From IMG/VR virus record IMGVR_UViG_2901201504_000001, positions 64,001 to 128,000 of that record: a DNA stretch of 64,000 bases. One strand, written 5' to 3'. Source of the stretch: a virus. Taxonomy: Duplodnaviria > Caudoviricetes. Shown piece by piece: positions 3,106-63,653 of the stretch (within the stretch, counting starts at the first letter, position 1; every line of letters begins with the position of its first letter). The translations under genes were made by a program, and so were the position numbers. The notes below the pieces were generated by a model. That model was not told the origin of the DNA, did not search any database, and saw nothing but the letters and a program-made list of their open reading frames with translations.

Positions 3106-3485
3106 CAGAACTTGAAATTTATTGCTGAGTTATATGGAGTATTTAAAAATAAATTAATTCAAAAATAAATATTCCGTATAACAACAAACTTTTTTTCGAG
3201 CATGGACTTTTTAAAGAAATAAATTCATGGACTATAGAAACCTTAATTTTCTATATAACAGCTAGTCATTTTTAGAGCTGGCTCAATTTGAAGGGATGTG
3301 AAAAAGGAATGGAGAGAATAAAATGCTTATTTTATGATAACATCTACGTTATTTCATTTTTCGTTATGTTAGTCGTATTTAATATCATGATTATTTTTTC
3401 ACTAACAAAGTAATACATTTCATAAGGAAATCAACTAATAAAAATTCTCATATTTTTCTAAAATTGTGTTATGATAGTATAAGTT

Positions 3486-3785
3486 TTGAAAGAAAAGGAA
3501 TGGACTTATCTCATGCTTATAGTATTTACTATTTATTTATGTATTGGTCTGGTCATAGGTTATTACAGAATTAAAGATATTGATGATGTAATCGATGATT
3601 ATGAAAATGGCGAAGAAATGATGGATGAAGAATTACAGTTGTTAAATAGTTTATCTGAATTAAATAATACTGTGGGAGGTAAATCTTCTTTAGTTGTTTT
3701 TTACGTGGTACATGCTTTATTTTGGTTACCAATGGAATCAAGCTACTATTATAAAAAATTGATAAATTTCTTTAAGAAAGAGTAA
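3486..3785 (+). CDS. Hypothetical membrane protein
   Basis: Two hydrophobic segments; start may be the ATG at 3513. Confidence 0.65.
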   Translation: MKEKEWTYLMLIVFTIYLCIGLVIGYYRIKDIDDVIDDYENGEEMMDEELQLLNSLSELNNTVGGKSSLVVFYVVHALFWLPMESSYYYKKLINFFKKE

Positions 3786-3811
3786 TAAACAAGACAGAAG
3801 GGATTATTGTC

Positions 3812-3997
3812 ATGGCAACTATAAATTTCTACGATGACTTACTAGATCATTATGTACTATATGAAAATAATTACAATAGATGTAAAAGTATGATAACTAG
3901 TGCGTTTAAGTATAAATACATAACAGAAGAGGAGTATAAGTACTTAATAAATAAGTTGAATGTCAAACATGAGGAAATGATTGAAGCGAATAAATAA
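3812..3997 (+). CDS. Hypothetical protein
   Basis: ORF with RBS AAGGGA; no MazE-like features. Confidence 0.6.
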   Translation: MATINFYDDLLDHYVLYENNYNRCKSMITSAFKYKYITEEEYKYLINKLNVKHEEMIEANK

Positions 3998-4022
3998 AGA
4001 TTAAATAATTTAAAAAATAATC

Positions 4023-4051
4023 TTGCGCACATTTCCAACTAGTGGTAAAAT
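4023..4051 (+). promoter_or_regulatory. sigmaA-type promoter upstream of mazF
   Basis: TTGCGC-17 bp-TAAAAT with extended TG. Confidence 0.6.
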
Positions 4052-4100
4052 GTAGTTAATAAGAAAAGATAATTAAATAAACTAAATTTATAGAAAAGGT

Positions 4101-4460
4101 GTGATTGATATGATGAATGTGAAACGAGGTGATATTTACCTCGCAGACCTATCACCAGTGGTTGGATCAGAACAAGGAGGTTTGCGTCCGGTATTAATTA
4201 TTCAAAACGATATTGGCAATAGGTATAGTCCAACTGTAATTGTAGCTGCAATCACTTCTCAAATCCAAAAAGCAAAGCTTCCGACTCATGTTGAAGTAAG
4301 TAAGAGATACGGTGTAGAAAAAGATTCAGTTATTTTAGGTGAGCAGATGCGTACAATTGATAAGAAAAGATTAACAACAAATAAATTAGGCCATCTAGAC
4401 GATTACATAATGGAAAAGGTTGATATAGCAATACAAGTGAGCGTTGGGCTAGTTGGTTGA
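4101..4460 (+). CDS. mazF: MazF/PemK (NdoA/EndoA-like) endoribonuclease toxin, no adjacent antitoxin
   Basis: [58 protein letters not shown] closely resembles B. subtilis NdoA; catalytic Arg and Thr present. Confidence 0.95.
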
Positions 4461-4639
4461 TATATAGGGTAAGTTAGTAATTTACTAGACTAGATGACAA
4501 GTGAGGAAAGTGATTTTTATAAGCAACAAGGATAATGAACAAAAGGAAATGGAATACTTTGAGACGGTAGAAGATATTATTAAATTCTATCAAAAAGACA
4601 ATAAGTGTTGAAATGTAAATTTTATTAAATTTATAAGAG

Positions 4640-4840
4640 GTGAATGAAATGTTTAAACTATGTTGGATTAAGAAGAACTCTTGGGGCGAAACGGGAGGGT
4701 ATGGATGTTGTACCAAGCATGATACGATTGAAGAAATAATTAAAATTATGTCTAAATGTATCTACAATGGGGAATGGATTGAAGATAAAAATGGAAATAA
4801 ACTGGATATAGATTTAAGTAAAGTAGCAATAACAAGATAA
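4640..4840 (+). CDS. Hypothetical protein
   Basis: RBS GAGGTG; stop overlaps palindrome at 4837. Confidence 0.6.
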   Translation: MNEMFKLCWIKKNSWGETGGYGCCTKHDTIEEIIKIMSKCIYNGEWIEDKNGNKLDIDLSKVAITR

Positions 4841-4865
4841 AATATTTCTATTAAAGGAGTAGAAC

Positions 4866-5057
4866 ATGGAGAATAATATGAAATTAGTACATGCATTAAG
4901 TGATAATTTGGATAGATTAAAAGTTTTTAGCACAGGATATACTACCGGTAATAAAAGTGCCTTATTAGTTAGCTTTGAAGGTAATGTGTATAAAATAGAT
5001 ATTCAAAAAGTTCAAGAAGGTGAAGTTGATATAGATATAGTTGATACTTACCTGTAA
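4866..5057 (+). CDS. Hypothetical protein
   Basis: RBS AAGGAG; lies between palindromes 4837 and 5063. Confidence 0.7.
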   Translation: MENNMKLVHALSDNLDRLKVFSTGYTTGNKSALLVSFEGNVYKIDIQKVQEGEVDIDIVDTYL

Positions 5058-5193
5058 ATCAAATAAAAGAAGTCTTTCAATGGCTTTTAACGATGCTTAT
5101 AACTTATTAAAACTAAATTAATTAATAATATAGTTATAAGTATTATTTAACAGCTATGTGAGACAAATTTATAAATTCTTAGGAGGAGAATAA

Positions 5194-6302: not shown

Positions 6303-6532
6303 AATTAAGGATTTTAAGAAACATGTACTTAGATATTACGGAAATTGGATAACGGATGAAGAAATACAAATATCTCTAGAGATTGCAATATGCATTTTTG
6401 AAGGTGAACAAATTTTTGTAGTGGATGCTCCATTATGTATACATGCAACTGCTTATTTAGATGAACATCTGATACAATATTATTAGTTGGAAATAAACGA
6501 ATAAAACAAGTCTTTTATTTGGAGGTAATAAA

Positions 6533-7473: not shown

Positions 7474-7656
7474 ATGGTGGGAGTTTCTATGTTAACTAAA
7501 GTTATGACTGAAGAAGAAATGCAACAATATGCCAATGAAAAAGAGGGTTATGAGGTTGAGTTTTTACCAGAGTATGCATTGAAATTAGGATATGAAGCAA
7601 CATTAGAAGAAGATTCAATTGGTGAAGAATACTATATTTTTAACAAGATAAAATAA
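7474..7656 (+). CDS. Hypothetical acidic protein
   Basis: Likely start ATG 7489 after GGGAG; ends in palindrome 7648. Confidence 0.55.
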   Translation: MVGVSMLTKVMTEEEMQQYANEKEGYEVEFLPEYALKLGYEATLEEDSIGEEYYIFNKIK

Positions 7657-7780
7657 CTATTTCATAAGTAGTTCATAAATAAAATCACCTTAAATATTTT
7701 CTTAAAATTATCACTTGAAATTTTATATCAAATAGTTTGAAATATATGTAGAATGTTTGTTTGTATAATTATGAAAAGAG

Positions 7781-8623
7781 GTGATGTCTTTGTGGAATGC
7801 CAAAATATTTATGGAGAAGTTTAAAAGTTGTTTGGCTTTTTCAGCAACTTTAGGTGGTTTTCTTTTAATATTTTATCCTCCTGGTGATCTTGATACTAAA
7901 CGAGGAATAGCTGCAGTAGTTGCGTTTATTATTGCGAATGTCTTAGCCGCAATAATTTTAGCAAAGCCAAAGAAAAAAATAAGTTTGGATATTTCGAAAA
8001 AGGTCAAGTTAAATATATTTTACGGTGACATATTTGATTCATCGTCAAATATTGTAATTCCCGTAAATGAATACTTTGATACGCTCGTAGACAATGTTCC
8101 TGATACTGTTATTTCAAGCAGAACACTACATGGTAAATTTGTTAAGCTGATTTATGGTGGTAACGTTGCTGAATTAGATGTTGCGATTGAAAATGCATTA
8201 AGCAGTGTTGATTGTAACATTAACCCCACTAGGAAGAAAGGTAAAACTAAAAAGTACAACATCGGTCAAACTATATGCATTAGTAAGGACGGTAAGAAAT
8301 ACAGTCTATTAGCATTTAGTAAGTTCGATGAATACAATAAAGCCTATCTGTCCAAAAAGAACTATCAGTTGGTAATACAAGATTTATTTGACCATCTCCA
8401 TGTTATTTCGCAAGGTGAAGAAGTAAACATGCCATTAATCGGAGCTGGTCAATCTGGAATCAACTTAACCAAGCAAGAACTTTTAGAGTACTTAATCTTC
8501 TCACTAAAAATGTGCGATGATCTTACATTAAGTGGAGGAATTAATATCGTATTGCATGAAAGCTTAAGAAAAGAACTTGATTTAAACAAAATTGAGTTTA
8601 TTTCAAAAAGAGGAGGATTTTAA
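7781..8623 (+). CDS. thsA: Thoeris type II effector ThsA (two TM helices plus macro domain)
   Basis: N-terminal TMs, then FYGDIF...VIPVNEYFDT...HG...MPLIGAG macro motifs; adjacent TIR gene. Confidence 0.85.
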   Translation: MMSLWNAKIFMEKFKSCLAFSATLGGFLLIFYPPGDLDTKRGIAAVVAFIIANVLAAIILAKPKKKISLDISKKVKLNIFYGDIFDSSSNIVIPVNEYFDTLVDNVPDTVISSRTLHGKFVKLIYGGNVAELDVAIENALSSVDCNINPTRKKGKTKKYNIGQTICISKDGKKYSLLAFSKFDEYNKAYLSKKNYQLVIQDLFDHLHVISQGEEVNMPLIGAGQSGINLTKQELLEYLIFSLKMCDDLTLSGGINIVLHESLRKELDLNKIEFISKRGGF

Positions 8624-8624
8624 A

Positions 8625-9179
8625 ATGGCATACAGAAATGGAACATACGTGGCGTTCAATGGGTGTGGTACAACGAATCCAACAGAAAGTGATATGAAAT
8701 ATTATGGATTATTGCAAAAATGGAATAAAGAATACGGGGCAGATTTAAATTTCAGCGATAGTCACGATAAAACATACAGTGTACGAGATTCTAGTAAAAC
8801 AGAAACATTGAAACGAAGATTGCTTGAAAGGTTGAAGAATTCAAAACATATAGTACTTATCGTTACTGAAAATTCAAGTTGGAATCGAGGTCTTCTTAAT
8901 TGGGAAATTGAAAAAGCGGTTGAGCAATATAAAATCCCATTGATTGTTGCACATACTACTTGTTCTGGATTTATATCGAGCCCTAAGCAATTAGCCCATT
9001 TGTTACCAGAGGAATTTAAGAACCAAGTGGCTAAAGGAAATATTAAAGCTATCCACGTTCCGTTTAGGAAAAGAGCAATTGGCGCAGCAATTCGTCAATT
9101 TGGTATCAATAATCAAATTCCAGATACAGCTTTTGACTATTATATTCAAAAAGCATATATTGATTGGGATTACAGATAA
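8625..9179 (+). CDS. thsB: Thoeris ThsB TIR-domain protein (DUF1863-like)
   Basis: MAYRNGTYVAF...FSDSHD...RDSS...ERLKNSK...LNWEIEKA (catalytic Glu); RBS AGGAGG before ATG 8625. Confidence 0.88.
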   Translation: MAYRNGTYVAFNGCGTTNPTESDMKYYGLLQKWNKEYGADLNFSDSHDKTYSVRDSSKTETLKRRLLERLKNSKHIVLIVTENSSWNRGLLNWEIEKAVEQYKIPLIVAHTTCSGFISSPKQLAHLLPEEFKNQVAKGNIKAIHVPFRKRAIGAAIRQFGINNQIPDTAFDYYIQKAYIDWDYR

Positions 9180-9286
9180 AAGATTGCTTTTATAATAGAG
9201 ATTACATTAAATATAGAGCGAGTTATTACAACAAGACATGCTTCATCGCTCTTAGTTATTACATTACGAAACTAGGAGGGATTTTC

Positions 9287-9836: not shown

Positions 9837-11000
9837 ATGTGCTTATTGAAAAAAATACTAAACAAAAGAGCATCTGATGACGATACTCTCATTAAAAATT
9901 TAGCCAAGGAAATAGGGTATTCAGATACTCCAATAAGAAATTTTAAAAACAAACCAGAAAAAGAGCTTGATAGTTTTGAATCGTTAGTAAAAATGGTTAG
10001 ATATTTAGAACCTGATAGAGAAATTGAAATTATGATTGATTACTCAAACCATTTAAGATTAAATTTCAATACTGCTCGATATATGCTAGATTATCTATCT
10101 GTAAATAGACAACTAGATGAGATGAATAGCTTAATTGAAAAGATGAAAGAATCATCAAATAAAGAAAGTGCGCTTTGGGCTAAAGCATATTCATTGTTAT
10201 ATTTATGGCAAACACAATCTTTCAAGTTAGATTTAGACAAGTTTTTGAATGAAGTAAATTATTTAGTTACAAAAAACATACCTTCATTAGAAATTTTACA
10301 AAGATTGTTGAAATGTTATATATATGATCAAAAGCAATATCATAAACAAGTACTAGAGATATCTGAAGAAGTTAAATTCCTTATTGAGAAAGTAGAAGAT
10401 AATTATTTAAAAAGGGTTTATTCAGTTAAAATCAATGAAATTACATCTAATCTTAAATTATGGGTTTACAATGATTTTGATGGAGCACGAGAAGATGCAA
10501 ATAAAGTTATAGAAGCTGATTTAGGAATTGGATTTACAGCTTATGCAAAATATACAATTGCTCAATCATATTTTTATACTTCATATGATAAATCTAGAGA
10601 GTATTTCATTGATTGTATTAGACTGTATGAAACTATGAATAGGAAAGAAGTTGCAGAAGATGTTGTCGGTTCTCTTGAGTTTTTAGAAATATTTTGGGAT
10701 CAGAAAAAGCAAGATAGTAGTTTTATATTAAAAGAGAATGAGCTATATATAAAAGCTAAATTAAACATAGATATTACGGAAGACTTACATAATTTTAATG
10801 ACGAAAATAAACAAGGATTTATATTATTTCTTAAAGGTATAAATGAAAATAATACTGATTTTTTATTTAAGTCTATGATTCAAAATCTTAAAGGGGGTGA
10901 TGCCTTTAGTGCCAACGCAGCTAGACTGGAACTTCAGAATAGAGGTTTCAGTGAAGTAGTATTAAATGAACTAATAAAGATTCACGACAATCAAAAGTAA
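9837..11000 (+). CDS. aimR: Arbitrium receptor AimR (HTH plus TPR, RRNPP family)
   Basis: 387 aa; N-terminal HTH (LAKEIGYS...NFKN...ELDSFESLVK), ARYMLDY, WAKAY, helical repeats; followed by a secreted-peptide gene. Confidence 0.9.
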   Translation: MCLLKKILNKRASDDDTLIKNLAKEIGYSDTPIRNFKNKPEKELDSFESLVKMVRYLEPDREIEIMIDYSNHLRLNFNTARYMLDYLSVNRQLDEMNSLIEKMKESSNKESALWAKAYSLLYLWQTQSFKLDLDKFLNEVNYLVTKNIPSLEILQRLLKCYIYDQKQYHKQVLEISEEVKFLIEKVEDNYLKRVYSVKINEITSNLKLWVYNDFDGAREDANKVIEADLGIGFTAYAKYTIAQSYFYTSYDKSREYFIDCIRLYETMNRKEVAEDVVGSLEFLEIFWDQKKQDSSFILKENELYIKAKLNIDITEDLHNFNDENKQGFILFLKGINENNTDFLFKSMIQNLKGGDAFSANAARLELQNRGFSEVVLNELIKIHDNQK

Positions 11001-12308: not shown

Positions 12309-13379
12309 ATGTTTACTAAAGATGCTTACATGATTGAAGTAAATAATAAATATATTTCCAGGAGAAGACATTCAGAGTATGATAACTTAGTTATTCTGAA
12401 TTATACCGAAAATGCCACTTATGAATGAAGGTGGAATGATATTACTCTATCAGCTAGAGGATTGATTATTGATGAAAAGACTGGAGAAGTAGTTGCAAGG
12501 CCGTTTCCTAAATTTTTTAATTACGGTGAGTTGCCGGAATACGAATCAGACATTCCATTCCATGAAACACCTGAATTCACAGTAAAGCAAGATGGTTCTT
12601 TAGGAATTAGTTATAAAGTAAATGGATATACATATTGGTCTACGAGAGGCTCATTTGAGTCAGAACAAGCTAAAGCAGCTCAAGTTATATGGGATAGAAA
12701 ATATGCAAATGTGGATATTCCAGATGAATTAACACTTTTAGTAGAGATAATTGATCCTGCAACAAGGGTGGTAGTTGATTATAAAGGTTTATCAGATTTA
12801 ATTATCATAGGTGCAGTAAATAGGTTTAATGGTTATGACTATAGCTATAAAGAATTGAAGGAATTAGGAAATAAATTAGGTATGATTGTTACGGAACAAA
12901 TCCCTCTTACTATACAAGAAGCTGTTCGATTGAAGGAAACAATAGATTATAACAGTGAAGGTTGGGTGCTACGCTGGTCTAATGGGAAACGTTTAAAAAT
13001 TAAGGGCAATAACTATCTAGATATACATAAGTTAGCATATGGATTATCTCAGAAGATGAAGACTGAATTTTGGAAAGATGAAAATATTGAAGAGTTAATA
13101 CTCAAAATGCCAGAAGAATTCAGAGAGGAAATTGAAAAATTCAATGATAGTTTAAATATCCATCTAAGCATTTTAATAAATACAGTTACTTCTTACGTAA
13201 ACACTTGTAAAGAGATGAGTAAAGATCGCAAAGAATTTGCTATGAATGTTAATATACACACTCCCAAAGAAATTAGGTATCTGATATTTAAAGAATATGA
13301 TAAAAAGCTAGATTCAAAAGTATATAGAGAGCATATCTACAAGAACTATCTAAATTACATTAATGGAGGAATAGGATGA
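12309..13379 (+). pseudogene. T4 Rnl1-like RNA ligase interrupted by an in-frame TGA at 12426-12428
   Basis: RBS GGAGGG, ATG 12309, MFTK...LNYTENATYE*RWNDITLSARGLIID continues in frame; PFPKFFN, KQDGS (motif I), EGWV, LKIK. Confidence 0.85.
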
Positions 13380-14356
13380 ATAAATTAATAATGTTAGTTG
13401 GTTTACCAGCAAGTGGTAAAAGCACATTAGCGGAAAAATTATCGAAAGAATATGATGCAGAAATCGTCTCTTCAGATGAAATTAGAAAAGAGTTATTTAA
13501 TGATATTAATGATCAAACTAATAATGATACAGTTTTCAATGTAATGCATGAAAGAGTTATTAAACTCCTCAATGCCGACAGAAGTGCTATTTATGATGCA
13601 ACAAACTTAAATAGAAAGCGGAGAAAACACTTAATCAATCATGTATTTAAAGCGGATCAAAAGATTGTTTACTACATTAATGAAAGTATTGGAACTGTGT
13701 TATGTAGAGACAGTGAACGTGAAAGAAATGTAGGAGAGAAAATAATAAGTAAAATGTATAAAAATCTTCATATTCCAGTTGAAGGAGAAGGATGGGATAA
13801 GGTAATTTACGTTAATTACTACAATGATGGGTTGTTGAGATTAAAAAAGCACTATGAAGAAGTTATCACTACTGTACATTCTCATGATGAACTGTTTGGA
13901 TATCTAACTGCATATATTAGTGAGTTCAGTGAAATTCTAAATTTACCACAGGATTCTAGCTATCATTCCTTTTCAGTAAGTAGGCATACATATTATGTAC
14001 ATAACTATATTCTAGAGAACTATCATAATGAAGATAGATTAATTTTATTATGGGCAAGTTTATTTCATGATATTGGAAAATCATATTGTAAATCATTTAC
14101 TAACTTTAAGGGAGAAGAAACAAAATATGCGAATTTCATAGGACATGAATATGTTTCTTCTCAGATAGCAGCAAAACGATTAGGGATGTTAGGATACGAT
14201 GAAAACTTTATTAAAAAAATTGTAACCTTAGTACAATTCCACATGATGCCGATGAGAGCTAGTGAAAAGAAAATGAATGAAATCAATAGGCTAATTGGAG
14301 ATGATTTATATGCTAAGTTAATGATACTTAGTGAAGCAGATACGCAGGCTAAATAA
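13376..14356 (+). CDS. Polynucleotide kinase (AAA_33-type P-loop) fused to an HD phosphohydrolase
   Basis: GLPASGKST, SSDEIR, YDATN; H...FHDIGK...GHE...HM...D. Confidence 0.85.
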   Translation: MNKLIMLVGLPASGKSTLAEKLSKEYDAEIVSSDEIRKELFNDINDQTNNDTVFNVMHERVIKLLNADRSAIYDATNLNRKRRKHLINHVFKADQKIVYYINESIGTVLCRDSERERNVGEKIISKMYKNLHIPVEGEGWDKVIYVNYYNDGLLRLKKHYEEVITTVHSHDELFGYLTAYISEFSEILNLPQDSSYHSFSVSRHTYYVHNYILENYHNEDRLILLWASLFHDIGKSYCKSFTNFKGEETKYANFIGHEYVSSQIAAKRLGMLGYDENFIKKIVTLVQFHMMPMRASEKKMNEINRLIGDDLYAKLMILSEADTQAK

Positions 14357-14385
14357 AAAGTCGATGTTATTAGGAGGTAGGGAAT

Positions 14386-14520
14386 ATGTTTTTATGTGAG
14401 AAATGTTTGGATGATAATTTTAAGAATTTCGCAATACCTTTTAGTCGTGGAAAATGTGAATTCTGTGAAAAAGTTAAAGTATGTGTAGATATTCCAAGTA
14501 AGTTTCTAGTGAAGAGATAG
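14386..14520 (+). CDS. Small zinc-finger protein (not in the ORF track)
   Basis: MFLCEKC...CEFC; RBS GGAGG. Confidence 0.6.
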   Translation: MFLCEKCLDDNFKNFAIPFSRGKCEFCEKVKVCVDIPSKFLVKR

Positions 14521-14549
14521 ACACGATTTTATTCTAATTAAGAACGATT

Positions 14550-14759
14550 ATGCGAAGGAATGGTGTGACTATGAGTAGTGAAAGAACGGTGAAAGAATTA
14601 AAAGAGGACATCAAACGAGAAATAGAAGCAACTCGGACTTTAAGAGAAACTGGAAGCGGATTTTACTATGAATATAAAGATTGGCAGTCAAAAAAGGATT
14701 GTGAGAGATTAGAGAAATTATTAAATGAAATTATCTATTTCGAATGGGAGTATTGTTGA
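14550..14759 (+). CDS. Hypothetical protein
   Basis: ORF; probable start at 14571. Confidence 0.55.
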   Translation: MRRNGVTMSSERTVKELKEDIKREIEATRTLRETGSGFYYEYKDWQSKKDCERLEKLLNEIIYFEWEYC

Positions 14760-14825
14760 GTGATTCTGTCATATAGCGTAGAAACTAAATAAAAGAACAA
14801 TTTCATTTTAAGGGTGGGGTGAAAA

Positions 14826-15206
14826 ATGTCAGTTAACGTATTTTGTGATGCATCTGTTAATAATAAAAAGCAAATGGCCGTATTGGGAGCAATAATAAGA
14901 CATAAAAATGAAATAATACATAAAAACCAATGCGTTGTAGAGAATGTTTCTGGTGGATCGTATCATGGGGAATTATTAGCTATAGAAATGACTGTGAATC
15001 TTTTGAAAGAATTGAATATGAGCCAAGTTAAAGTATTTACAGATTGTCAAAGTGCAGTTTATAGATTGCGAAACCAGCTAAAGAAAGGTGCAAAACACAG
15101 AAAACGCATTGAAAAGATAAAAGAAAAAGCTAAAGAATTAGAACTTGAATTCCATTGGATTCCAAGAGAGAGAAATAAAACTGTTGATAAATTAACAAGA
15201 ATATAA
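14826..15206 (+). CDS. Ribonuclease HI-like protein
   Basis: FCDAS, GELLAI, FTDCQ, HWIPRERN..VD; DEDD catalytic set intact. Confidence 0.88.
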   Translation: MSVNVFCDASVNNKKQMAVLGAIIRHKNEIIHKNQCVVENVSGGSYHGELLAIEMTVNLLKELNMSQVKVFTDCQSAVYRLRNQLKKGAKHRKRIEKIKEKAKELELEFHWIPRERNKTVDKLTRI

Positions 15207-15237
15207 ATTAATAAATTTTATAAAGGGAGATAATTGA

Positions 15238-15942: not shown

Positions 15943-15999
15943 TATAAAATACCATTTTCATCGTTCGAAAATAAATTAATACAAAAAGGGAGAGAATGG

Positions 16000-16407
16000 A
16001 TGAAAGAAATTTTGGAATATATTTTACCTCCAGGTGATCAAATCATTAAATATGATCAAGTAAACGAAAAAATCTTGCTAGAACATAGAATGACAACATC
16101 TCTATATGACTATATCGAAGTAGTTACAAATTATTATGACGATGATGAAATGCCATATATCAACAATTGGACTGACGTTGAATGTATGGGATATGGTTGG
16201 GCTTGGTTGAATTATGAAGAAAAAGATTGGCATAAAATGATGGGTAAACTTGTTTCTGACACAGCAGATTTATTGTTGCTAAATATGGATAATGCCCTAT
16301 ATTTTGTTTATGAAAACGAGAAGGTAAGAACTTATCATTTTGTATCTCTAGATGACTGGAGAGAAGATAAATTAATTAGTTTTTCAAATGAGGAAATTGA
16401 TTTTTAA
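16000..16407 (+). CDS. Hypothetical protein
   Basis: RBS AAGGGAG. Confidence 0.7.
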   Translation: MKEILEYILPPGDQIIKYDQVNEKILLEHRMTTSLYDYIEVVTNYYDDDEMPYINNWTDVECMGYGWAWLNYEEKDWHKMMGKLVSDTADLLLLNMDNALYFVYENEKVRTYHFVSLDDWREDKLISFSNEEIDF

Positions 16408-16457
16408 TTAGTATATAAAGAGTCGATATTCCACAACATAATTTTAAAAAGGAATTT

Positions 16458-17312: not shown

Positions 17313-17377
17313 ATGTAGTCAGTTTAGTAGATATAGTTTGAAGATAAATTAATCTAAAAAAATAAAGGAGCGAGTGA

Positions 17378-17680: not shown

Positions 17681-17719
17681 TTACATAATAAATGATTTAT
17701 TTTATAAGGAGATGATGTA

Positions 17720-25780: not shown

Positions 25781-25795
25781 TACTTTTAAACATCT

Positions 25796-50934: not shown

Positions 50935-50935
50935 T

Positions 50936-51961
50936 ATGGATGTATATGGACTCAAGAATCACATTATTAGCAACTCAGAATTAATTGAATTAGTACTTGA
51001 AAAAACAGGTTTTCATAATATTGATGATTCATTTGGTAGAGGAAAAGAGTATAGATGTGCTAGAAAGGCAGGGAGAAATCCTACATCAGTAAAAGTTAAC
51101 AAGCAAACATTGGGAGCTACGTGTTTTTCTACAAATTTAAAAGGAGATTTAATTACTCTCGTTCAATCAAAGTTAATGATTTCTTTTCCACAAGCTATCA
51201 AAAAAATATCAGAAATAGTTGATTATAAGTTTAATATAACTGAAGACACCTATGTACCATTTGGAGGCTATTATAAAAACATAGCAAGATTGAAGAATAA
51301 TCTTGAAGTTGTTGATATTGAAGTTTATTCTGACGACATTCTAGATCAATTTCAAATCATGCCTAATTTATTGTTTTATGAAGATGGAATTCTTCCTGAA
51401 GTACAAATTAAATACAAAATAGGCTATGACAGTGTAAGTGGAAGGATAGCAGTTCCATGGTATTCATTTGATGGACAAATATGTGGAATCATGGGAAGGA
51501 TAAACAGACGAGAGGTTAGAGATGATGAAACCAAGTGGTTTCCAATTCTCCCTTTTCCGAAATCCAAGACACTTTATGGGTTTGTAGAAAATTACAATTC
51601 AATTCAAGAAAAAAGTGCAATCATGATTGGTGAGAGTGAGAAACATAGTTTACAACTTTCTTCAAAAGGATTGAACATTGGAGTATCGCTAGGTGGTAGC
51701 TTTCTAAGTGAAATTCAATCTAATAATATTAAATCACTTTTCCCTAAGAAGATTTTCGTAATGATGGATGAAGGTTTGAATGAAGAACATAGTAGAGAAA
51801 TAGCCAAACAACTAAAAGTAGAAAGATATTATAAAAACAAAGTGTACTATGTCTATGATAAAAATAACATTTACTTACCTAAAGGGAGTAAAATGGCTCC
51901 AGCAGATCTAGATAAAAACAGCCTTAGTATGCTGATTAAAAATTGTTCAATTGAAGTATAA
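50936..51961 (+). CDS. DNA primase (TOPRIM, YorJ-like)
   Basis: GRIAVPW...GIMGR...LYG...GESEK...MDEG. Confidence 0.82.
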   Translation: MDVYGLKNHIISNSELIELVLEKTGFHNIDDSFGRGKEYRCARKAGRNPTSVKVNKQTLGATCFSTNLKGDLITLVQSKLMISFPQAIKKISEIVDYKFNITEDTYVPFGGYYKNIARLKNNLEVVDIEVYSDDILDQFQIMPNLLFYEDGILPEVQIKYKIGYDSVSGRIAVPWYSFDGQICGIMGRINRREVRDDETKWFPILPFPKSKTLYGFVENYNSIQEKSAIMIGESEKHSLQLSSKGLNIGVSLGGSFLSEIQSNNIKSLFPKKIFVMMDEGLNEEHSREIAKQLKVERYYKNKVYYVYDKNNIYLPKGSKMAPADLDKNSLSMLIKNCSIEV

Positions 51962-51972
51962 GGGGTGATGTT

Positions 51973-53037
51973 TTGAAGGAAAGATTACAAGAATTGAAAG
52001 ATCAGGGGAAAACAGTTTATTCATTTTCCCGTCTAGGAACAATGAATAATTGTGAATATGAATATTATAATACATACATGTTGAAGAATAGAGGAATTGA
52101 AAACATATACACTGTCATGGGTTCTTCAATACATGATGGCACTGAGTCGCTATATAAGGGTGAGATGAATCCAAAAGATTTCAAAGAAAGTGTTGAAAAT
52201 AAATTAATAGAAAGTGAACTATTAGGAATAACATTCCCAAGTGATAAAATCGGTGATAGTTGGAAAGCTGACGTAAATCATTTTCTAGCAAACTTTAAAA
52301 AGATTGATAAGAAGGCTGTATTAGAAAAATTAATTGTATTTGAGGTTTCCGATGGTATCTATTTTCAAGGATATGTTGATGCAATCATGCCCAGTGATAA
52401 AGGTAAGCCTTATATAGATGTAGTTGACTGGAAAACATCAAGTAAATTCACTGGGAAGAAGTTGACTGAAGCAGGAAGACAATTGCTTCTATACAACATT
52501 GGATTAGATCAAGTTACAAATGTAAAAGTAGATAAAGTTGTATGGTTTATGATTAAATACGTATACGTTTGTAGTCAGGGTAAGAAAGCAGTTAAAAAGA
52601 AAATGTGTAACAGAGGTAAATGGGTTAAAGAAATTAGGAATCAACTTCATAAATTACTAGAAAAGTCAGGTGTGGAAGATTTTGAAGTAGAAATTTTACT
52701 TGATAAAGCGGTTGAAGATAATAACTTATCCTGTTTACCAAAAGAAATTCAAGAACAATATTGGTTAGAAGACTGTATGGTAGAGTATGACATTACTGAT
52801 GAAAAAATTAATGAAGTTAAAGAGTATGTCGTGGATACAGTGCAAAAGATTGAAAATAAGAATCCTTCTGATGAATCTGAATGGAAACCAAAGAAGATTG
52901 ATAAGTATGATTCATTTTACTGTAGCGTTTTATGCGGTCATCGAAAAACTTGCAGATTCTATAAAGAATTTTTGGATAATAATTCAAATGATTTCACTAA
53001 AAAGAAGAAAGATGATGATTTTGACTTATTCGGATGA
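51973..53037 (+). CDS. PD-(D/E)XK (Cas4/RecB-like) nuclease
   Basis: YSFSRL...C...GYVD...DWKTS...QLLLY...C...C...C. Confidence 0.85.
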   Translation: MKERLQELKDQGKTVYSFSRLGTMNNCEYEYYNTYMLKNRGIENIYTVMGSSIHDGTESLYKGEMNPKDFKESVENKLIESELLGITFPSDKIGDSWKADVNHFLANFKKIDKKAVLEKLIVFEVSDGIYFQGYVDAIMPSDKGKPYIDVVDWKTSSKFTGKKLTEAGRQLLLYNIGLDQVTNVKVDKVVWFMIKYVYVCSQGKKAVKKKMCNRGKWVKEIRNQLHKLLEKSGVEDFEVEILLDKAVEDNNLSCLPKEIQEQYWLEDCMVEYDITDEKINEVKEYVVDTVQKIENKNPSDESEWKPKKIDKYDSFYCSVLCGHRKTCRFYKEFLDNNSNDFTKKKKDDDFDLFG

Positions 53038-54836
53038 GAGGTGAGAAATTGAGGAAAGTATTTTATGACTTTGAGGTTTTTAGTAAAAGCATTGATCCGG
53101 TTACAGGAAGAAGTTTTTGGCTAGTTGTTCTAATTGATTATGATTCACAAAAAGGAAAAGTGATTATCAATGATGTTAATGAATTAAAGAAATATTATAA
53201 TTATTTCAAAAATGATGTTTTCATCGGTTACAACAGTAGAATGTACGATCAATACATATTCAAAGGATTATTATTAGGGATGGACGCTGGATACATAAAC
53301 GATAAATTAATTAATGAAGGCAGAAAAGGCCATGAAGTTGTGAGGGATGCATTTAAAATTCCATTTAATAATTTTGATGTTACAACTGGATTCCATAGCT
53401 TGAAACAGCTTGAAGCTTTCATGGGTAGTAGAATCAAGGAATCTTCTGTTCCTTTTGATATTGAAAGACCTTTAACAAAAAATGAGATTAAAGAAACCGT
53501 TGATTATTGTATACATGATGTTAAAGAAACAATTAATGTTTTTGATAATCGAATAGAGGAATTTGAAAGTCAATTAGCTTTAATAGAAGCATTTGATTTA
53601 GATATGAAGCAATTTAATAAAACTAAAGCTCAACTTTCAGCATTTATTATTGGAGCAGAAAAGAAGCCGGATAGAAAAGATGAATTTAATTTATGTTTTC
53701 CAGATACATTACAAGTAGAAAAATATAAAGATATTGTTGAATGGTATAAGAATCCAGAAAATATGGATTATAAGCAAAAACTAAAAGTTGAAGTAGCTGG
53801 TGTTCCACATATCTTTGCTTGGGGTGGTATTCATGGAGCCATTCCAAAATATAAAGATGAAGGAATTATATTATGTGCGGATGTGGCTTCGCTTTATCCG
53901 AGCTTAATGATTGAATATGGATACATAAGTAGAAACGTAAGAGAACCTTCAAAATTTAAAGAGATACGTGATAAGCGATTGGAATTAAAGAAACAAAAAG
54001 ATCCTAGACAATTGCCAATGAAAATCGTTATAAATGCAAACTATGGTGCAATGAAAGATAAGTTTAATCCATTATATGATCCATTAATGAGTAATAATGT
54101 GTGTCTAGCTGGACAATTGTTATTACTAGATTTGATTGAAAAATTAGAACCATATTGCAAGCTGGTACAATCCAATACAGACGGTGTGTTTTTAAAAGTT
54201 GAGAAAGAATCTGATATAAAAATTATTAAAGAAGTTGCTGCTGAATGGGAACATAGAACACGTTTGGATTTAGAATGGGAAGTATTCAATAAGATTTATC
54301 AAAAGGATGTTAATAACTACATAATTATTGATGAAAACGGAAAGTACAAATCAAAAGGAGCTTATGTAAAAAAGTTAACCAACTTAGATTATGACTTGCC
54401 AATTGTCAACAAAGCTTTGATTAATTATTTTACTAAAGATATCCCATTAGAACAAACGATTAATGAATGTGATGAATTACGTGAATTTCAGAAAGTAGTA
54501 AAGATTTCTTCTAAATATGAGTATGGAACTCATGGAGATGAAAAAGTAAAAGAGAAAGTACTTCGTGTATTTGCTGATAATAGAGATACTTCTCAAGGAG
54601 TATTTAAGCATAAATGGAAGACTAATAAAGAAGGAGAAACTAATTTAGTAGCTGAGAAGATTGGTAATACTCCAGAAAAATGCTTTATTGATAATGGAGA
54701 TATCCAGGGGAAATTAATACCAGATTATTTAGATAAACAGTATTATATTGATCTTGCTCAAAAGAGACTAAATGACTTCTTAGGCATTAAAGCACCTAGA
54801 AAGAAGAAAGTTAAAGAAAAAACAGACGTCAAATAA
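53034..54836 (+). CDS. Family B DNA polymerase with 3'-5' exonuclease
   Basis: ExoI YDFE, ExoII YNSRMYD, ExoIII YCIHD; DVASLYPS, KIVINANYG, NTDG. Confidence 0.9.
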   Translation: MRGEKLRKVFYDFEVFSKSIDPVTGRSFWLVVLIDYDSQKGKVIINDVNELKKYYNYFKNDVFIGYNSRMYDQYIFKGLLLGMDAGYINDKLINEGRKGHEVVRDAFKIPFNNFDVTTGFHSLKQLEAFMGSRIKESSVPFDIERPLTKNEIKETVDYCIHDVKETINVFDNRIEEFESQLALIEAFDLDMKQFNKTKAQLSAFIIGAEKKPDRKDEFNLCFPDTLQVEKYKDIVEWYKNPENMDYKQKLKVEVAGVPHIFAWGGIHGAIPKYKDEGIILCADVASLYPSLMIEYGYISRNVREPSKFKEIRDKRLELKKQKDPRQLPMKIVINANYGAMKDKFNPLYDPLMSNNVCLAGQLLLLDLIEKLEPYCKLVQSNTDGVFLKVEKESDIKIIKEVAAEWEHRTRLDLEWEVFNKIYQKDVNNYIIIDENGKYKSKGAYVKKLTNLDYDLPIVNKALINYFTKDIPLEQTINECDELREFQKVVKISSKYEYGTHGDEKVKEKVLRVFADNRDTSQGVFKHKWKTNKEGETNLVAEKIGNTPEKCFIDNGDIQGKLIPDYLDKQYYIDLAQKRLNDFLGIKAPRKKKVKEKTDVK

Positions 54837-54905
54837 AAGAATAGTTTTATTGTAAAAATAGGCTCTGAAAAGCCTTATATATCAACGTTTCTGGGAGGTG
54901 AATTT

Positions 54906-56866: not shown

Positions 56867-57100
56867 TGACTAAGTTAGAAGATTTAATGAATCAATTTTA
56901 TTATACAGGAAAGCTATCAATAGACGAGCAAATTGATATTAATAATGGTTTACCAAAAGATGATTGTATAAACGAATATGAGAAGTTCTTCCGTTGGTTG
57001 AATACGCAATTGTAAGGAAATAAAATGGAGAGTTTATTGGGACATCTAATGCATGAATTAATATAAAATATAGGTTTTATTTGAAAAGGAGATTGATAGT

Positions 57101-59188: not shown

Positions 59189-59358
59189 TAAAATATAATA
59201 AAAGTAAATTAATATAAAACTTACGGATATATGTATGTGGTTTACTTAAATTGTTTATCAATATGTAGTATATAAGACAAAATAAAAGTTACATTTTATT
59301 TATTAAGGGAATGGTGAATAAATAAAAAAGAGAGTGACTATTAATCACTCTCAGGAAA

Positions 59359-60030
59359 TTATGTTAATGGTATAGGGTCTTGATTAGAGTTATGTAGGAA
59401 TTTGCCTTTAGATAATCTAAATAACTTAGCAGAATTAATCACACTTGGTATTCCGTTTGGACATAAATGATATGAGTATTTTTTACTTTTAAGATAGCTT
59501 TTGTACTTATCAGCTTTACCTAGAAAAGCAAATCCTTGAATGGATTCTACATAGCTATGGATAGTATTTAATATGAATTGATATTCTTCTACATCTTCGA
59601 TATTATCTGGTATTCCACCTGTACATAAGAAAATATAATCAACTTCAGCAATTTGATCATGAATAAGACTTAAATTTTCTAATACTTTTCGATAATAATA
59701 TGACGATGAAATACTCTTAACTTTTTTTAATGTTTCATATAACTTTACTGAACATGATTCATAATATGGATAAACATTAACTACCCTAAATTCACCAATT
59801 TTGTAACTTGTTAAATCGTGATAAGCAACATGAGCACACTTGTTAATAGTTTTATCTGAGATGCTTTTATTAGCTGTACTTGGATTCATTAAAATAAAAA
59901 GAATCTTCTTTGAAAAACTATTATTTAACTTTGCTTTTAGGAGTGTTCGACATCTCACATCCGTATTTTTTAGTCGTTTAACACTACAGTTTGTTGGTGT
60001 AATAACATAACTGGGGTAAGTTTCACTCAT
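59359..60030 (-). CDS. DUF1643-domain protein (paralog 1)
   Basis: LFILMNPSTAN...DKTINKC...VVNVYP. Confidence 0.75.
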   Translation of the reverse strand: MSETYPSYVITPTNCSVKRLKNTDVRCRTLLKAKLNNSFSKKILFILMNPSTANKSISDKTINKCAHVAYHDLTSYKIGEFRVVNVYPYYESCSVKLYETLKKVKSISSSYYYRKVLENLSLIHDQIAEVDYIFLCTGGIPDNIEDVEEYQFILNTIHSYVESIQGFAFLGKADKYKSYLKSKKYSYHLCPNGIPSVINSAKLFRLSKGKFLHNSNQDPIPLT

Positions 60031-60145
60031 TATTAATCATCCCTCTCTTATTCTAATTATAGCATATTGTCATTTTATAATTGAGAAGGAAATAAAATCA
60101 GGTTTTTAATCAAAAAAAAGAGTGAAGGTTAATCACTCTTGAGGT

Positions 60146-60859: not shown

Positions 60860-61014
60860 ACTAATTAGCTATCTTAGAATAACGGATGAAATAGGGCTAT
60901 TAAATAGAAGGGAATATAAATGAAACAAAGAATGAGAAGTAAAAATATTGAATGAGGCAAACATAATAAAATCTATCTTTTATGGGGTAAAAAAAGAAGC
61001 CCTACAAGGCTTCC

Positions 61015-61758: not shown

Positions 61759-61918
61759 GTTTTCCTCCTTGATAATTAGTTTTACCAATACAATTATATC
61801 AATCTATATTGGAAAATTACGAGAATAATACAAAATTCCGAAAATAAAATTAAGTATATGGAAAAGTAGTTTATAAATGGTGTAAGAGGTGTAATGAATA
61901 AATATCATTTAGAAGAGG

Positions 61919-62254
61919 GTGAATAATATGGAAGTTAATTTAGAATATTTAGTTGGAGATGAGGTTATTGTAAAGACAAGCAAGCTTAAAGGTAAGATTG
62001 TACAGAGAAAAGTAACAATAACAGACACTGGATTTAAAACGTATTTTATTGAAATGTATCAAATTAAATATGTAACTAGGCCTTATCAACCATTGGAATG
62101 GGTGAATGTAGACAGAATTGAATTAGATAAGGTTAATAATGAGCTATCGGATGAATATGGAGTATTAAGCGTTATTATCGATGTTAATTTGTTACAAGGG
62201 TATCGTAATGATGAAATGGTTAAAATGTATAATGAGATGAGGAATACTCTTTGA
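61919..62254 (+). CDS. Hypothetical phage protein
   Basis: SH3-like VGDEV N-terminus; IDEAL-like tail. Confidence 0.65.
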   Translation: MNNMEVNLEYLVGDEVIVKTSKLKGKIVQRKVTITDTGFKTYFIEMYQIKYVTRPYQPLEWVNVDRIELDKVNNELSDEYGVLSVIIDVNLLQGYRNDEMVKMYNEMRNTL

Positions 62255-62448
62255 AACCAGTGATTAGTGATGAGAAACGTGATCGGCTATATGATTGTCA
62301 TAGAAATATTGAAGATGCACTAGATATGGTACATAGTAGATTTGAAGAAATTGATTTACCAAGTGATGAATATAATTCTATTAACGAGCTATTTAATGAT
62401 GTATATTTTAAGCTGAAAGATTTATATGAAGAAATTTACTTTTCTTAA
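62251..62448 (+). CDS. Hypothetical protein
   Basis: Overlapping start; RBS GAGG. Confidence 0.6.
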   Translation: MKPVISDEKRDRLYDCHRNIEDALDMVHSRFEEIDLPSDEYNSINELFNDVYFKLKDLYEEIYFS

Positions 62449-62457
62449 AAATAACAC

Positions 62458-62486
62458 TTGATAAAAGTTAAATAATATAATATAGT
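62458..62486 (+). promoter_or_regulatory. sigmaA promoter
   Basis: TTGATA-17 bp-TATAGT. Confidence 0.55.
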
Positions 62487-62526
62487 AATAATACAAAAGT
62501 TAATTAATTAAAAAAGAGGTGATAAT

Positions 62527-62823
62527 ATGAAACTCACATTAGACGATAGATTTCGAGTATATAGTGATCCTAGAAATTTCATCCTAGAGAAATTAGAGGA
62601 TGTTAAAGACAGGAAAACAGGGGATGTTAAACAAGAATGGAAAACTGTTGGCTTTTTTGGAAGGTTTGAACATTTACTCAATACATACAAAAACGAGAGT
62701 ATTAGAAATATGGAAGATACTTCTCTAAGTGAAATTGAGAAATTGTATCTAAAATTAGATCAAACAATAAAAGATGTAGTAAAAAGGGAGAATATAACGC
62801 TTGAGTTACATAAGACACTGTGA
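62527..62823 (+). CDS. Conserved phage protein (DUF5405-like)
   Basis: SDPRNFIL...KTG...WKTVGFF. Confidence 0.65.
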   Translation: MKLTLDDRFRVYSDPRNFILEKLEDVKDRKTGDVKQEWKTVGFFGRFEHLLNTYKNESIRNMEDTSLSEIEKLYLKLDQTIKDVVKRENITLELHKTL

Positions 62824-63001
62824 TGTTTGTAAAGAATATAATCCAGACATAAACCATGTTGTTAGAATTTCAGATGATAAAAATTACCATGAGATTAATG
62901 GTCATGAAGATTGTATTAATAAATTGCACACTAAACTCAAATCATTAGACATTGATAAGCTAAGTGTAGACAAGGTTATCAAGTTAATAAAAATTAATTA
63001 A
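62801..63001 (+). CDS. Small zinc-binding protein
   Basis: CDVC...GHEDC. Confidence 0.6.
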   Translation: MSYIRHCDVCKEYNPDINHVVRISDDKNYHEINGHEDCINKLHTKLKSLDIDKLSVDKVIKLIKIN

Positions 63002-63193
63002 ATTAAAATAAAATACAGTTTTTATTAAGGGGTGTATGAGATGAATTTGAAATTAAGGTTGAAGACTCAAGACATTATCAAGTTATTATTTGGAAGGAGT
63101 TTCCTGATAAAGGATCAATATAATAATTTAATTTATCGAGTTCAGAAAGGTCATGATACATATATTACAAAACAATAAAGCAAAGGAGGAGAA

Positions 63194-63400
63194 ATGATGC
63201 CTAGCTATAATGATACTGAAATAAATAAAGAAGAGTTTGAGTCATTTATAAGTGCTGAAAGCTGTTATCAAATCGGTGTGCCAATTGCAGATAGAGTAAA
63301 TTATCATTCGAATGAAACGGATGTGATAATAGCTTATAAATGTTTTGGTGGCTTAAATGGAAAATACCATGAATCTTATTACATTAGAACATACAAATAA
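63194..63400 (+). CDS. Hypothetical protein
   Basis: RBS AGGAGG; stop lies in palindrome 63397. Confidence 0.65.
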   Translation: MMPSYNDTEINKEEFESFISAESCYQIGVPIADRVNYHSNETDVIIAYKCFGGLNGKYHESYYIRTYK

Positions 63401-63436
63401 AACGCAGCTTTTATTAATTGAAACGGAGGTTTTACA

Positions 63437-63607
63437 ATGAAAACTATTATGGAAGAGATAAAAGAAGAATTAGACAACATCAACAGAATTGCAAACAATA
63501 CTCCAGAAGACAGTGAAGCAGAAGATTTGAATTCATGTATTTCAGATATGATGAATGCAATTGATGACTTAAAATCTACCATTGATATGAAATATCCGAA
63601 AATCTAA
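63437..63607 (+). CDS. 56-aa hypothetical protein (not in the ORF track)
   Basis: RBS GGAGG; between palindromes 63397 and 63607. Confidence 0.6.
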   Translation: MKTIMEEIKEELDNINRIANNTPEDSEAEDLNSCISDMMNAIDDLKSTIDMKYPKI

Positions 63608-63653
63608 TAAAATTCACTTTTTAAATGGTCTTAAATAGAAAGGAGAGTCACAT

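Follow-up and report, generated by a model that had tools for sequence, protein, structure and literature searches.

The origin of phage mosaicism is debated, with random illegitimate joining followed by selection on one side and directed exchange at special sites on the other. Tyrosine recombinases such as Cre, Flp, and Xer exchange strands across an overlap of 6 to 8 bp and need the overlaps of the two partners to match; in the engineered heterospecific lox and FRT sites of Cre and Flp, the arms are identical, the centres differ, and only sites with matching centres recombine. The PeSL elements of T4-type phages, comparatively long elements that carry an early promoter and a stable hairpin, were reportedly proposed by Arbiol et al. 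in 2010 to mediate modular shuffling, and in cluster A mycobacteriophages such as L5, the immunity repressor binds asymmetric sites termed stoperators. On Acinetobacter plasmids, pdif sites and dif modules use the host recombinases XerC and XerD, as described in the available part of PMC6449649. Here we analyze a 64,000-nucleotide window of viral DNA (bases 64001 to 128000 of the single 137,119-bp contig of IMG/VR record IMGVR_UViG_2901201504_000001; ~30% G+C) in which an 18-bp element, composed of ATAAAA, six free bases (the centre), and TTTTAT or TTTTAA, recurs at gene junctions.

We put at roughly 0.55 the probability that this element is a crossover site for in-register exchange among co-resident relatives, in which the centre would act as an address and an Xer-type enzyme as the catalyst. 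A literature search that did not extend to the 1999 genome paper of phage SPbeta or to supplementary files found no description of the motif, nor did passages of a comparative preprint on Spbetavirus, a preprint on anti-defence genes, and the Perkons paper contain one.

Results

The palindrome has an obligatory gap and lies at gene junctions

A first-pass annotation of the window, made from its letters alone, had described about 50 copies (26 perfect, counted by eye) of an inverted repeat with a nearly invariant 6-bp spacer. The array was confirmed. ATAAAA-N6-TTTTAW has 47 strand matches in the window, or 27 distinct sites, against 1.06 expected from dinucleotide shuffles; the annotation's rough estimate had been on the order of one perfect match per 64 kb by chance. 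None of 100 shuffles reached 47 strand matches (maximum, 5). For ATAAAA-N6-TTTTAT, 20 perfect and 24 one-mismatch sites (44 in total) were found, together with 55 two-mismatch matches, many of which are probably due to chance. The six spacers that the annotation had given as examples (6501, 9176, 20329, 23697, 31743, and 63397) were all found in place. With a gap of 6, 32 perfect and 31 one-mismatch sites were counted genome-wide, against 0 or 1 perfect site for each gap of 0 to 5 or 7 to 13 between the same arms; the spacer length is thus obligatory. When all inverted repeats of 5 and 6 bases were counted without bias, ATAAAA with gap 6 came out far ahead at the top (32 versus 0.46 expected).

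Almost all sites are intergenic, as judged from gene calls that are crude (79% coding) and make large site-to-gene distances unreliable. With the same calls, the reported placement at gene junctions held up: the upstream gene often ends at motif position 4, so that the left arm contains its TAA, or directly borders position 1. The start codon of the next gene is commonly 14 to 40 nt 3′ of the site, and many copies contact the ribosome binding site (RBS) directly. Copies were also seen between convergent genes, between minus-strand genes, and just 5′ of G+C-rich terminator hairpins. As the annotation had stated for the yopPQRS and yorF-polB core operons, no site with up to one mismatch was found in the lysogeny block (25790 to 30475) or in the replication block (46394 to 54832). 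A one-mismatch match at 10849, inside the AimR-like open reading frame (ORF), is probably due to chance.

The annotation had called the array integron-like. A true integron, in which an IntI-type integrase captures promoterless cassettes through folded attC sites, would account for the presence of one site per gene at the ORF 3′ end, for the mostly co-oriented genes, and for the tyrosine recombinase gene nearby. Neither attC-like sites nor an integrase of the IntI type were found (no search was made for attI or Pc): the sites are 18 bp long with a 6-bp gap, against folded attC sites of 57 to 141 bp, and the nearby YopP-like protein matches IntI4 only at an E value of 0.26. Moreover, the copies are dispersed across the whole 137-kb genome, on both sides of the YopP-like gene, rather than forming one array behind an integrase, and their centres are kept by position and not by cassette, as described below. 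We consider the probability of an integron negligible.

Sequence information is confined to the two arms

In an alignment of 60 oriented copies, information was confined to the two arms. There are no conserved flanks, apart from a weak A before the left arm (position 0) and a weak T after the right arm (position 19), and no promoter-like hexamers were found at a fixed distance in these 60 copies. A reading of the copies as promoters of the phage RNA polymerase YonO was rejected, since the available text of PMC5467207 describes a single start site for YonO, that of the late operon.

The centres avoid prolonging the A and T runs at positions 7 and 12, and their G+C content is 37%, compared with 28% for intergenic DNA. 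All 63 genome sites have different centres, also when read as reverse complements, and none is palindromic. About one coincidence would be expected by chance, so the uniqueness of the 63 centres is weak evidence by itself. With a gap of exactly 6 and palindromic arms, the copies do have the core geometry of a tyrosine recombinase site, as had been noted from the first.

Copies that lie between the stop codon and the RBS of polycistronic transcripts, with a slight orientation along the genes, would also suit an element that acts in RNA as a weak AU hairpin (6-bp stem, 6-nt loop) past the stop, for processing, stability, or translational coupling. Departures from the consensus do not preserve pairing, however. 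At the pair formed by positions 3 and 16, the departures create A-C five times and the RNA-tolerable G-U twice, and 9 of the 60 copies have a broken outer pair. Together with a stem of six A-U pairs, barely stable by estimate, these departures argue against an RNA hairpin. Copies between convergent genes and 5′ of true terminator hairpins fit an RNA element poorly, and the position-kept centres would be left unexplained, so that we regard an action in RNA as highly improbable. Between convergent genes, as at the perfect copy at 59282 to 59299, the element is not a promoter or RBS element either.

Homology to a relative of the window breaks at the sites

A relative of the window was present in a DNA run of another study, here called X2, the contigs of which were aligned to window positions 20001 to 40000; stretches without X2 cover are those where no contig matched and mean nothing more. 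Of the words sampled from window positions 30001 to 40000, 53% occur in X2, and one 26-kb X2 contig matches the window at 22608 to 22849, 24055 to 30494, 31741 to 33968, 35027 to 37564, and 38441 to 38905. Eight of the 10 ends of these large blocks lie at most 8 nt from a site edge. Positions this close to a site make up 3.6% of the stretch (P of ~1e-10) and 14% of its intergenic bases (P of ~6e-6). In the lineage of the window, the proposed check of gain and loss breakpoints against the motif thus came out positive. The ninth end, 22849, is the final left-arm base of a degenerate copy at 22844 to 22861 (plus strand; left arm ATAGAT, two mismatches), and the tenth, 38905, is not at a site.

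The first block begins 7 nt past a one-mismatch site at the stop of the DUF1256 gene (22584 to 22601, plus strand). The lysogeny block forms one unit in X2, bounded on the left by the perfect site at 24063 to 24080 and on the right by the perfect site at 30476 to 30493. Past 30494, X2 has 911 other letters where the window has 1246, and homology resumes at 31741, next to the perfect site at 31743 to 31760 (centre GTGGAG). It ends at 33968 in a plus-strand site with a TTTTAA arm (33952 to 33969), resumes at 35027 next to a one-mismatch site (35031 to 35048, plus strand), ends at 37564 in a one-mismatch site at the YopX stop (37548 to 37565, plus strand), and resumes at 38441 next to a perfect site (38443 to 38460). 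Four sites lie within shared blocks and show no break in X2: the perfect copies at 24275 to 24292 and, 5′ of the YopX gene, 37100 to 37117, and the plus-strand copies with a TTTTAA arm at 25772 to 25789, 5′ of the YopP-like gene, and at 36792 to 36809.

Outside the large blocks, five short islands of identity to X2 were found, and each covers a site: ~20318 to 20348 (perfect site at 20329 to 20346, centre ACTCAA, 5′ of the DUF4062 gene), 23373 to 23398 (26 nt; one-mismatch site at 23377 to 23394, plus strand), 23690 to 23711 (22 nt; perfect site at 23697 to 23714, centre TTCACG), 34325 to 34364 (40 nt; perfect site at 34326 to 34343), and 38170 to 38194 (25 nt; perfect site at 38170 to 38187). 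They therefore seem to be lone copies that have retained their centres. When large and small pieces are taken together, 17 of 23 ends lie at most 11 nt from a site.

Searches for other relatives gave little. Window positions 30001 to 55000 had no megablast match in the phage collection, and distant blastn with positions 25000 to 31000 found only phages Perkons and E3 in that collection (~70% identity over small parts). No loci related to the MrpR-like protein of the window were found among viral contigs. The exact 18-mer of site 31743 occurs in three viral contigs; these have no further similarity to the window, and the matches are therefore attributed to chance.

Copies keep their centres amid replaced neighbours in Spbetavirus

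We aligned positions 81.5 to 101.5 kb of SPbeta with the matching regions of Goe13, phi3T, SPbetaL4, L6, L2, and SPR (seven genomes). Among 373 clustered ends of blastn high-scoring segment pairs (HSPs), 64 lie at most 10 nt from a site, compared with 7.4 for random positions, so that the breakpoint check also came out positive in this clade. Of the 193 intergenic HSP-end clusters, 52 fall within a site or 3 nt to either side, a zone that makes up 5.1% of intergenic bases. HSP starts accumulate at site position 1, and HSP ends accumulate at position 18 and at position 6, the border between left arm and centre.

The centres stay in place as the neighbours change. Where only the upstream flank of a site pair is in common, the centre is identical in 19 of 23 pairs; where only the downstream flank is in common, it is identical in 36 of 40, and the remaining 4 are one base off. 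The same 18-mer is found between quite different sequences that diverge from the first outside base (for example, the copies with centres GATGCA and AGACTG). Eleven 18-mers were found in at least three phages; more than one flank class was present on at least one side in 10 of them and on both sides in 8, and 1 of the 11 displays all four flank combinations. A site can have up to 5 upstream and 6 downstream contexts, with the new genes abutting it to the base, and the order of centres is collinear in all seven phages. The site thus coincides with homology breaks to the base, and each copy, together with its centre, outlives neighbouring genes.

Breaks at the 18-mer edges or at the arm/centre border, combined with position-kept centres, indicate in-register exchange and not free cassette shuffling. 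Of the proposal that the copies are recombination sites that move cassettes, the part that stood is that breakpoints map to the sites; integron-like free shuffling did not survive the comparison. In two indels, a single upstream gene is joined to differing centres. The centre after yoqG is TTGAAG in SPbeta and AGACTG in phi3T, L4, and L6, and the centre after yoqX is ACGATA in SPbeta and, with a Gad1 block, CAGAGA in L4; each indel looks like the insertion of a cassette at the border between left arm and centre. The 49 site-bearing junctions are all mosaic in one comparison or more, as are 82 of the 134 junctions without a site, which makes the site a preferred, not the sole, place of exchange.

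The genes for the anti-Gabija proteins Gad1 (SPbetaL4, L012 13379 to 15184) and Gad2 (SPbetaL6, L013 12430 to 13682) occupy one slot in this region, bounded by palindrome copies and with downstream centre ACGATA. The available part of 10.1101/2023.05.01.538930 likewise places Gad1 and Gad2 in the same locus of different SPbeta-like phages.

The element belongs to one broad lineage of phages

SPbeta carries 13 perfect copies of ATAAAA-N6-TTTTAT (0.32 expected), 38 copies within one mismatch, and 34 copies of TAAAA-N6-TTTTA (2.35 expected), and there, too, copies lie at stop codons. The motif was present in all six SPbeta-like prophage loci of other genera. The counts of TAAAA-N6-TTTTA per phage, with those of a control pattern in brackets, were 17 (2) in Perkons, 17 (8) in a Staphylococcus SPbeta-like phage, 37 (3) in Mammaliicoccus phi116, 30 (7) in Geobacillus E3, 28 (1) in pW2, 23 (3) in Tsamsa, and 7 (3) in Lactococcus 949. 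Three Bacillus subtilis phages of other kinds, each without a YomM-like gene, gave 1 (1), 0 (2), and 0 (0). Most copies in two host genomes are clustered in the prophage region, and the chromosomes are not enriched; one of these genomes, of 5.3 Mb, holds 65 copies, most of them within ~125 kb, compared with 14 of the reversed control pattern. The counts and the clustering in hosts indicate that the element belongs to one broad lineage of large Bacillales siphophages rather than being a host signal. It is a genuine site with strict spacing, specific to these phages.

Phages pW2 and Tsamsa (Joanripponvirinae) have 14 centres in common, of which 13 are collinear, at distances from one another that differ between the two phages; the centre CTGCAC is placed differently. 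Between SPbeta and the phage of the window, no centre is shared (~1.15 expected), so the addresses are lineage specific.

The element is not the MrpR operator SPBRE

The palindrome had initially been considered as a possible copy of SPBRE, the operator of the master repressor MrpR (YopR). In the available part of PMC10516654, ten MrpR peaks are reported from chromatin affinity purification sequencing (ChAP-seq), all at SPBRE promoters, and the 15-bp motif of these peaks is SPBRE. We derived SPBRE from the upstream regions of the ten published MrpR targets in the SPbeta record. The element common to the ten targets, as the available part of that study names them, is ATACAAATAATATGTATA, with arms ATACA and TGTAT and a gap of 7, and we infer that it is identical with the published SPBRE logo. 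It is flanked by an AGACAA-like hexamer and on its other side runs into TATAAT, which places it inside a promoter.

The window does encode an MrpR homologue, and in both motifs 12 bp separate the half-site centres, as they would if palindrome and SPBRE were the same. Nevertheless, the two sequences differ, ATACAAATAATATGTATA lying between −35-like and −10-like hexamers and the palindrome having no conserved flanking hexamers and many copies in contact with an RBS. SPbeta carries both motifs, which are therefore distinct elements of the same phage, and the window shows no enrichment of the SPBRE core (7 versus 6.3 expected). The ten ChAP-seq peaks reported in the available part of PMC10516654, compared with 38 palindrome sites in SPbeta, indicate that MrpR does not bind the junction palindrome there. 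Identity with SPBRE was thus discarded as extremely improbable.

A YomM-like protein is the best candidate enzyme

With less assurance than for the site itself, we propose a YomM-like protein of the Phage_integrase family as the best candidate enzyme; the YopP-like protein and host XerC/XerD would be the alternatives. The YomM-like gene lies outside the window (genome 25570 to 26583, minus strand; L016:771-1784:-). Its product is closest to XerA/XerC-like structures and is 57 to 76% identical over five lineages (Bacillus, Psychrobacillus, Staphylococcus, and Mammaliicoccus phages), with a mean column identity of 73%. The gene was found in every motif-bearing lineage checked, and it adjoins the tape-measure gene in pW2, the Staphylococcus SPbeta-like phage, and phi116. 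No paper naming yomM was found in the literature searched.

The YopP-like integrase family protein is encoded at 25937 to 26953 (plus strand; Pfam Phage_integrase, 4e-12). It aligns the residues H-x-x-R, H, and Y, is only 31% identical to SPbeta YopP, and matched no solved structure at an E value of 0.001, with only marginal rows at values up to 10. The available part of PMC13245101 reports no direct homologue of YopP in Tsamsa, and Tsamsa carries the motif despite this absence. The extra tyrosine recombinases of these phages have no known role as far as the available parts of PMC13245101 and PMC10516654 go.

Host XerC/XerD are candidates that would explain the invariant site across hosts and would fit the weak signal in the Lactococcus phage; lactococci use a different Xer system. 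In the first 50 kb of Lactococcus phage 949, no comparable palindrome was found as an alternative motif.

Gene content of the window and further sites

The window contains an SPbeta-like lysogeny module. Besides the YopP-like gene, it comprises genes for a DndB-like YopQ (27049 to 28389), an MrpR (YopR)-like repressor of recombinase fold with both MrpR Pfam domains (28407 to 29399, plus strand), a small helix-turn-helix (HTH) protein (29654 to 29863, minus strand), and an AimR homologue identified with Pfam (9837 to 11000). Pfam also identified a DUF4062 gene (20438 to 21388), the DUF1256 gene that had been annotated as yyaC (22021 to 22584), a YopX gene (37138 to 37551), and a DUF1643 gene (59359 to 60030, minus strand). 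Only 34 of the 179 crude gene calls had an SPbeta match by tblastn (E value of 1e-5); similarity to SPbeta was closest for structural genes, at up to 80% identity.

A gene for an Rce1-like CAAX protease (7e-14; 24582 to 25487) lies within the conserved lysogeny block, immediately 5′ of the YopP-like gene. Positions 12462 to 19537 encode a T4-type RNA ligase, a kinase with an HD phosphohydrolase, an RlaP-like nucleotidyltransferase, an ATP-dependent DNA ligase, and a metallophosphoesterase, a run that resembles a set for RNA and DNA repair, perhaps directed at host nucleases.

A Thoeris pair, ThsA and ThsB (7781 to 9179; Macro domain, 2e-46, and TIR, 6e-17), is bounded by a one-mismatch site on its 5′ side (7648 to 7665, plus strand, right arm TTTCAT) and by a perfect site (9176 to 9193, centre GATTGC) in which the TAA is the stop of the ThsB-like gene. 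Upstream of the pair are perfect sites at 3318 to 3335 (centre TGCTTA) and at 6501 to 6518 (centre CAAGTC), the latter with an RBS directly 3′. One-mismatch sites on the plus strand follow at 14353 to 14370, where the TAA is the stop of the kinase/HD gene; at gene junctions at 14789 to 14806 and 17688 to 17705; at 15944 to 15961, 1 nt past a stop and followed by the repeat AATAAATTAATA; at 18077 to 18094; at 19715 to 19732, where the site spans a stop codon and a G+C hairpin comes next; and at 23238 to 23255 and 38547 to 38564. A plus-strand site with a TTTTAA right arm lies 3′ of the DUF4062 gene (21437 to 21454), and at 38848 to 38865 it is the minus strand that reads ATAAAA-N6-TTTTAA.

Farther on, a perfect site occupies a divergent junction, with a start codon 15 nt on (42843 to 42860). 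The replication operon has a one-mismatch site as its left border (46376 to 46393, plus strand), and the TAA of a perfect site at 54833 to 54850 is the stop of the last replication gene, followed by a G+C hairpin. Next come a one-mismatch site at 57020 to 57037 (plus strand) and a perfect site at 57063 to 57080, with a start codon 20 nt on. Two sites lie between minus-strand genes, one on the plus strand at 60092 to 60109 and a perfect one at 60966 to 60983. The last three are perfect sites at 63008 to 63025 and at 63397 to 63414 (centre CGCAGC; its TAA is the stop of the upstream gene) and a plus-strand site with a TTTTAA arm at a stop codon (63607 to 63624).

Two other repeats were noted. 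The first, AATAAATTAATA, has 43 matches within one mismatch genome-wide (for example, at window positions 15970, 31767, 36814, and 37126). It is oriented with the genes, lies from a few to ~25 nt 5′ of the RBS, often directly after the palindrome, and could be part of a promoter or a translation enhancer. The second, AAAAGTTAAATAA, has 9 to 11 copies genome-wide and is at times fused to AATAAATTAATA; examples stand just before the AATAAATTAATA copies near window positions −537 and 45889.

Discussion

We propose that the 18-bp element would be a DNA site read by a protein of two-fold symmetry and that crossovers would occur within the site, so that co-resident relatives could trade genome segments in register. 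The centre would serve as an address, a copy pairing with its counterpart in the other phage and not with its neighbours, and an occasional crossover between nonmatching copies would insert or delete gene cassettes. Somewhat more speculatively, the catalyst would be a tyrosine recombinase of the Xer type. The matching-overlap rule of these enzymes would explain why the DNA between the 63 copies is not lost by recombination among them even though counterparts in two phages could recombine in register, and breaks at the centre borders fit cuts between positions 6 and 7 and between positions 12 and 13.

Several observations weigh against this proposal. The breaks at the centre borders would fit any crossover inside identical arms equally well and do not prove the chemistry, and general or phage-annealase recombination could use identical 18-mers as microhomology without any dedicated enzyme. 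Conservation covers only six bases of each arm, less than the arm length of classical core sites. The YomM-like protein has an invariant Lys in place of the second catalytic Arg (H-x-F-K and not H-x-x-R) in all five homologues, SPbeta YopP likewise reads HSFK, and the YomM-like protein or YopP may thus be inactive or atypical. The co-occurrence of YomM and motif is confounded by the shared ancestry of the phages, and Lactococcus phage 949 has a YomM-like gene yet only seven sites against three for the control. Two perfect copies lie within ORFs outside the window (genome 17464 and 32762), in the 3080-amino-acid tape-measure gene and a yomZ-like gene. The X2 islands are only 22 to 40 nt long, a length for which the alignment tool itself gives a warning, and in the seven-phage set, HSP-end clusters and junctions are not independent events. 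Motif-free junctions are mosaic as well (82 of 134), and the site is thus not required for exchange. Finally, when the copies are oriented by gene direction, the downstream arm departs from the consensus 14 times and the upstream arm 4 times: TTTTAA occurs 9 times and TTTCAT 5 times downstream, and the mirror changes occur twice each upstream. This asymmetry and the close fit to stop codons suggest a link to expression.

These last points lead to the strongest alternative, that the element is primarily an expression signal on DNA, an operator or roadblock of a phage regulator or a gene-end mark, and serves only incidentally as an 18-bp microhomology for RecA or a Sak4-like annealase. The placement of copies directly at stop codons and before RBSs in both gene orientations, the more degenerate downstream arm, the mosaic motif-free junctions, and the Lys at the catalytic Arg position of candidate recombinases are all in its favour, and the phage family has several HTH regulators, among them the small HTH gene of the window. 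Yet a free spacer in a regulator site would not account for position-kept centres amid replaced flanks, and base-exact abutment in up to 5 upstream and 6 downstream contexts is unlike random illegitimate joining. Flanking promoter elements are lacking, the copy at 59282 lies between convergent genes, and the ten MrpR peaks described in the available part of PMC10516654 are all at SPBRE promoters. On sequence comparison, abutment and position-bound centres speak against an expression signal being the whole story, and we consider such a signal unlikely, if still a serious contender.

The proposal of in-register exchange may tentatively be extended to a broad Bacillales phage group (Spbetavirus, Perkons, Geobacillus E3, the staphylococcal SPbeta-like phages, and Tsamsa-like Joanripponvirinae). 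These phages might share an addressed system in which ~30 to 60 Xer-type sites are numbered slots exchanged in register by a YomM-like recombinase, a generalization that we regard as possible but rather doubtful. If true, it would amount to a natural recombinase-mediated cassette exchange by which defence and anti-defence genes are shuffled and ORFs stay intact. It would explain why Gad1 and Gad2 share one locus in different SPbeta-like phages, and it would provide a role for extra tyrosine recombinases that are unexplained in the available part of PMC13245101. Because the 18-bp site marks breakpoints in SPbeta, a model phage, and in those of its relatives that are used in the laboratory, for which knock-outs, mixed infections, and mapping by long reads are routine, the question of how mosaicism arises becomes directly testable, and natural orthogonal sites might serve as a tool for phage engineering.

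Among known systems, Xer/pdif modules and heterospecific cassette exchange resemble the finding closely, except that it occurs in a phage, has position-bound centres, and extends over several phage groups. As described in the available part of PMC6449649, pdif modules likewise have many short Xer-type sites, with inverted arms and a 6-bp centre, that flank adaptive genes in changing contexts; here, the replicon is a phage, the arms have 6 conserved bases compared with 11-bp dif-type arms, each centre is unique and kept in position among relatives, and a phage-encoded Xer-type protein is available. Heterospecific lox and FRT sites are matched by 63 different centres in one genome and by collinear centres in relatives. 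The present sites differ in being natural and in having arms of 6 bp compared with 13 bp, and some events join copies with different centres; the centre dependence itself is deduced from comparison.

The other parallels are more distant. Integrons share the placement of a site at the 3′ end of the cassette ORF and cassettes of one or a few genes, among them defence or anti-defence genes (here, Thoeris, Gad1, and Gad2), but the element has no attC-like folded site or IntI, and its copies are genome-wide with centres that follow position. Like PeSL elements, it is a short repeated intergenic element that borders small accessory ORFs in plastic phage regions; unlike them, it has no promoter at a fixed distance and is a weak AT palindrome with a unique centre. 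With stoperators, it shares dozens of copies of a short site in small intergenic gaps near stops of a temperate phage, and it differs in being a palindrome with a free centre, the known repressor MrpR binding another motif according to the available part of PMC10516654. SPBRE, from the same phage family, is also an AT-rich inverted repeat and, in the same source, is bound by a protein of tyrosine recombinase fold, but it reads ATACA-N7-TGTAT, lies in promoters in about ten copies, and shows no enrichment in the window, whereas the 18-bp palindrome marks gene junctions across the genome.

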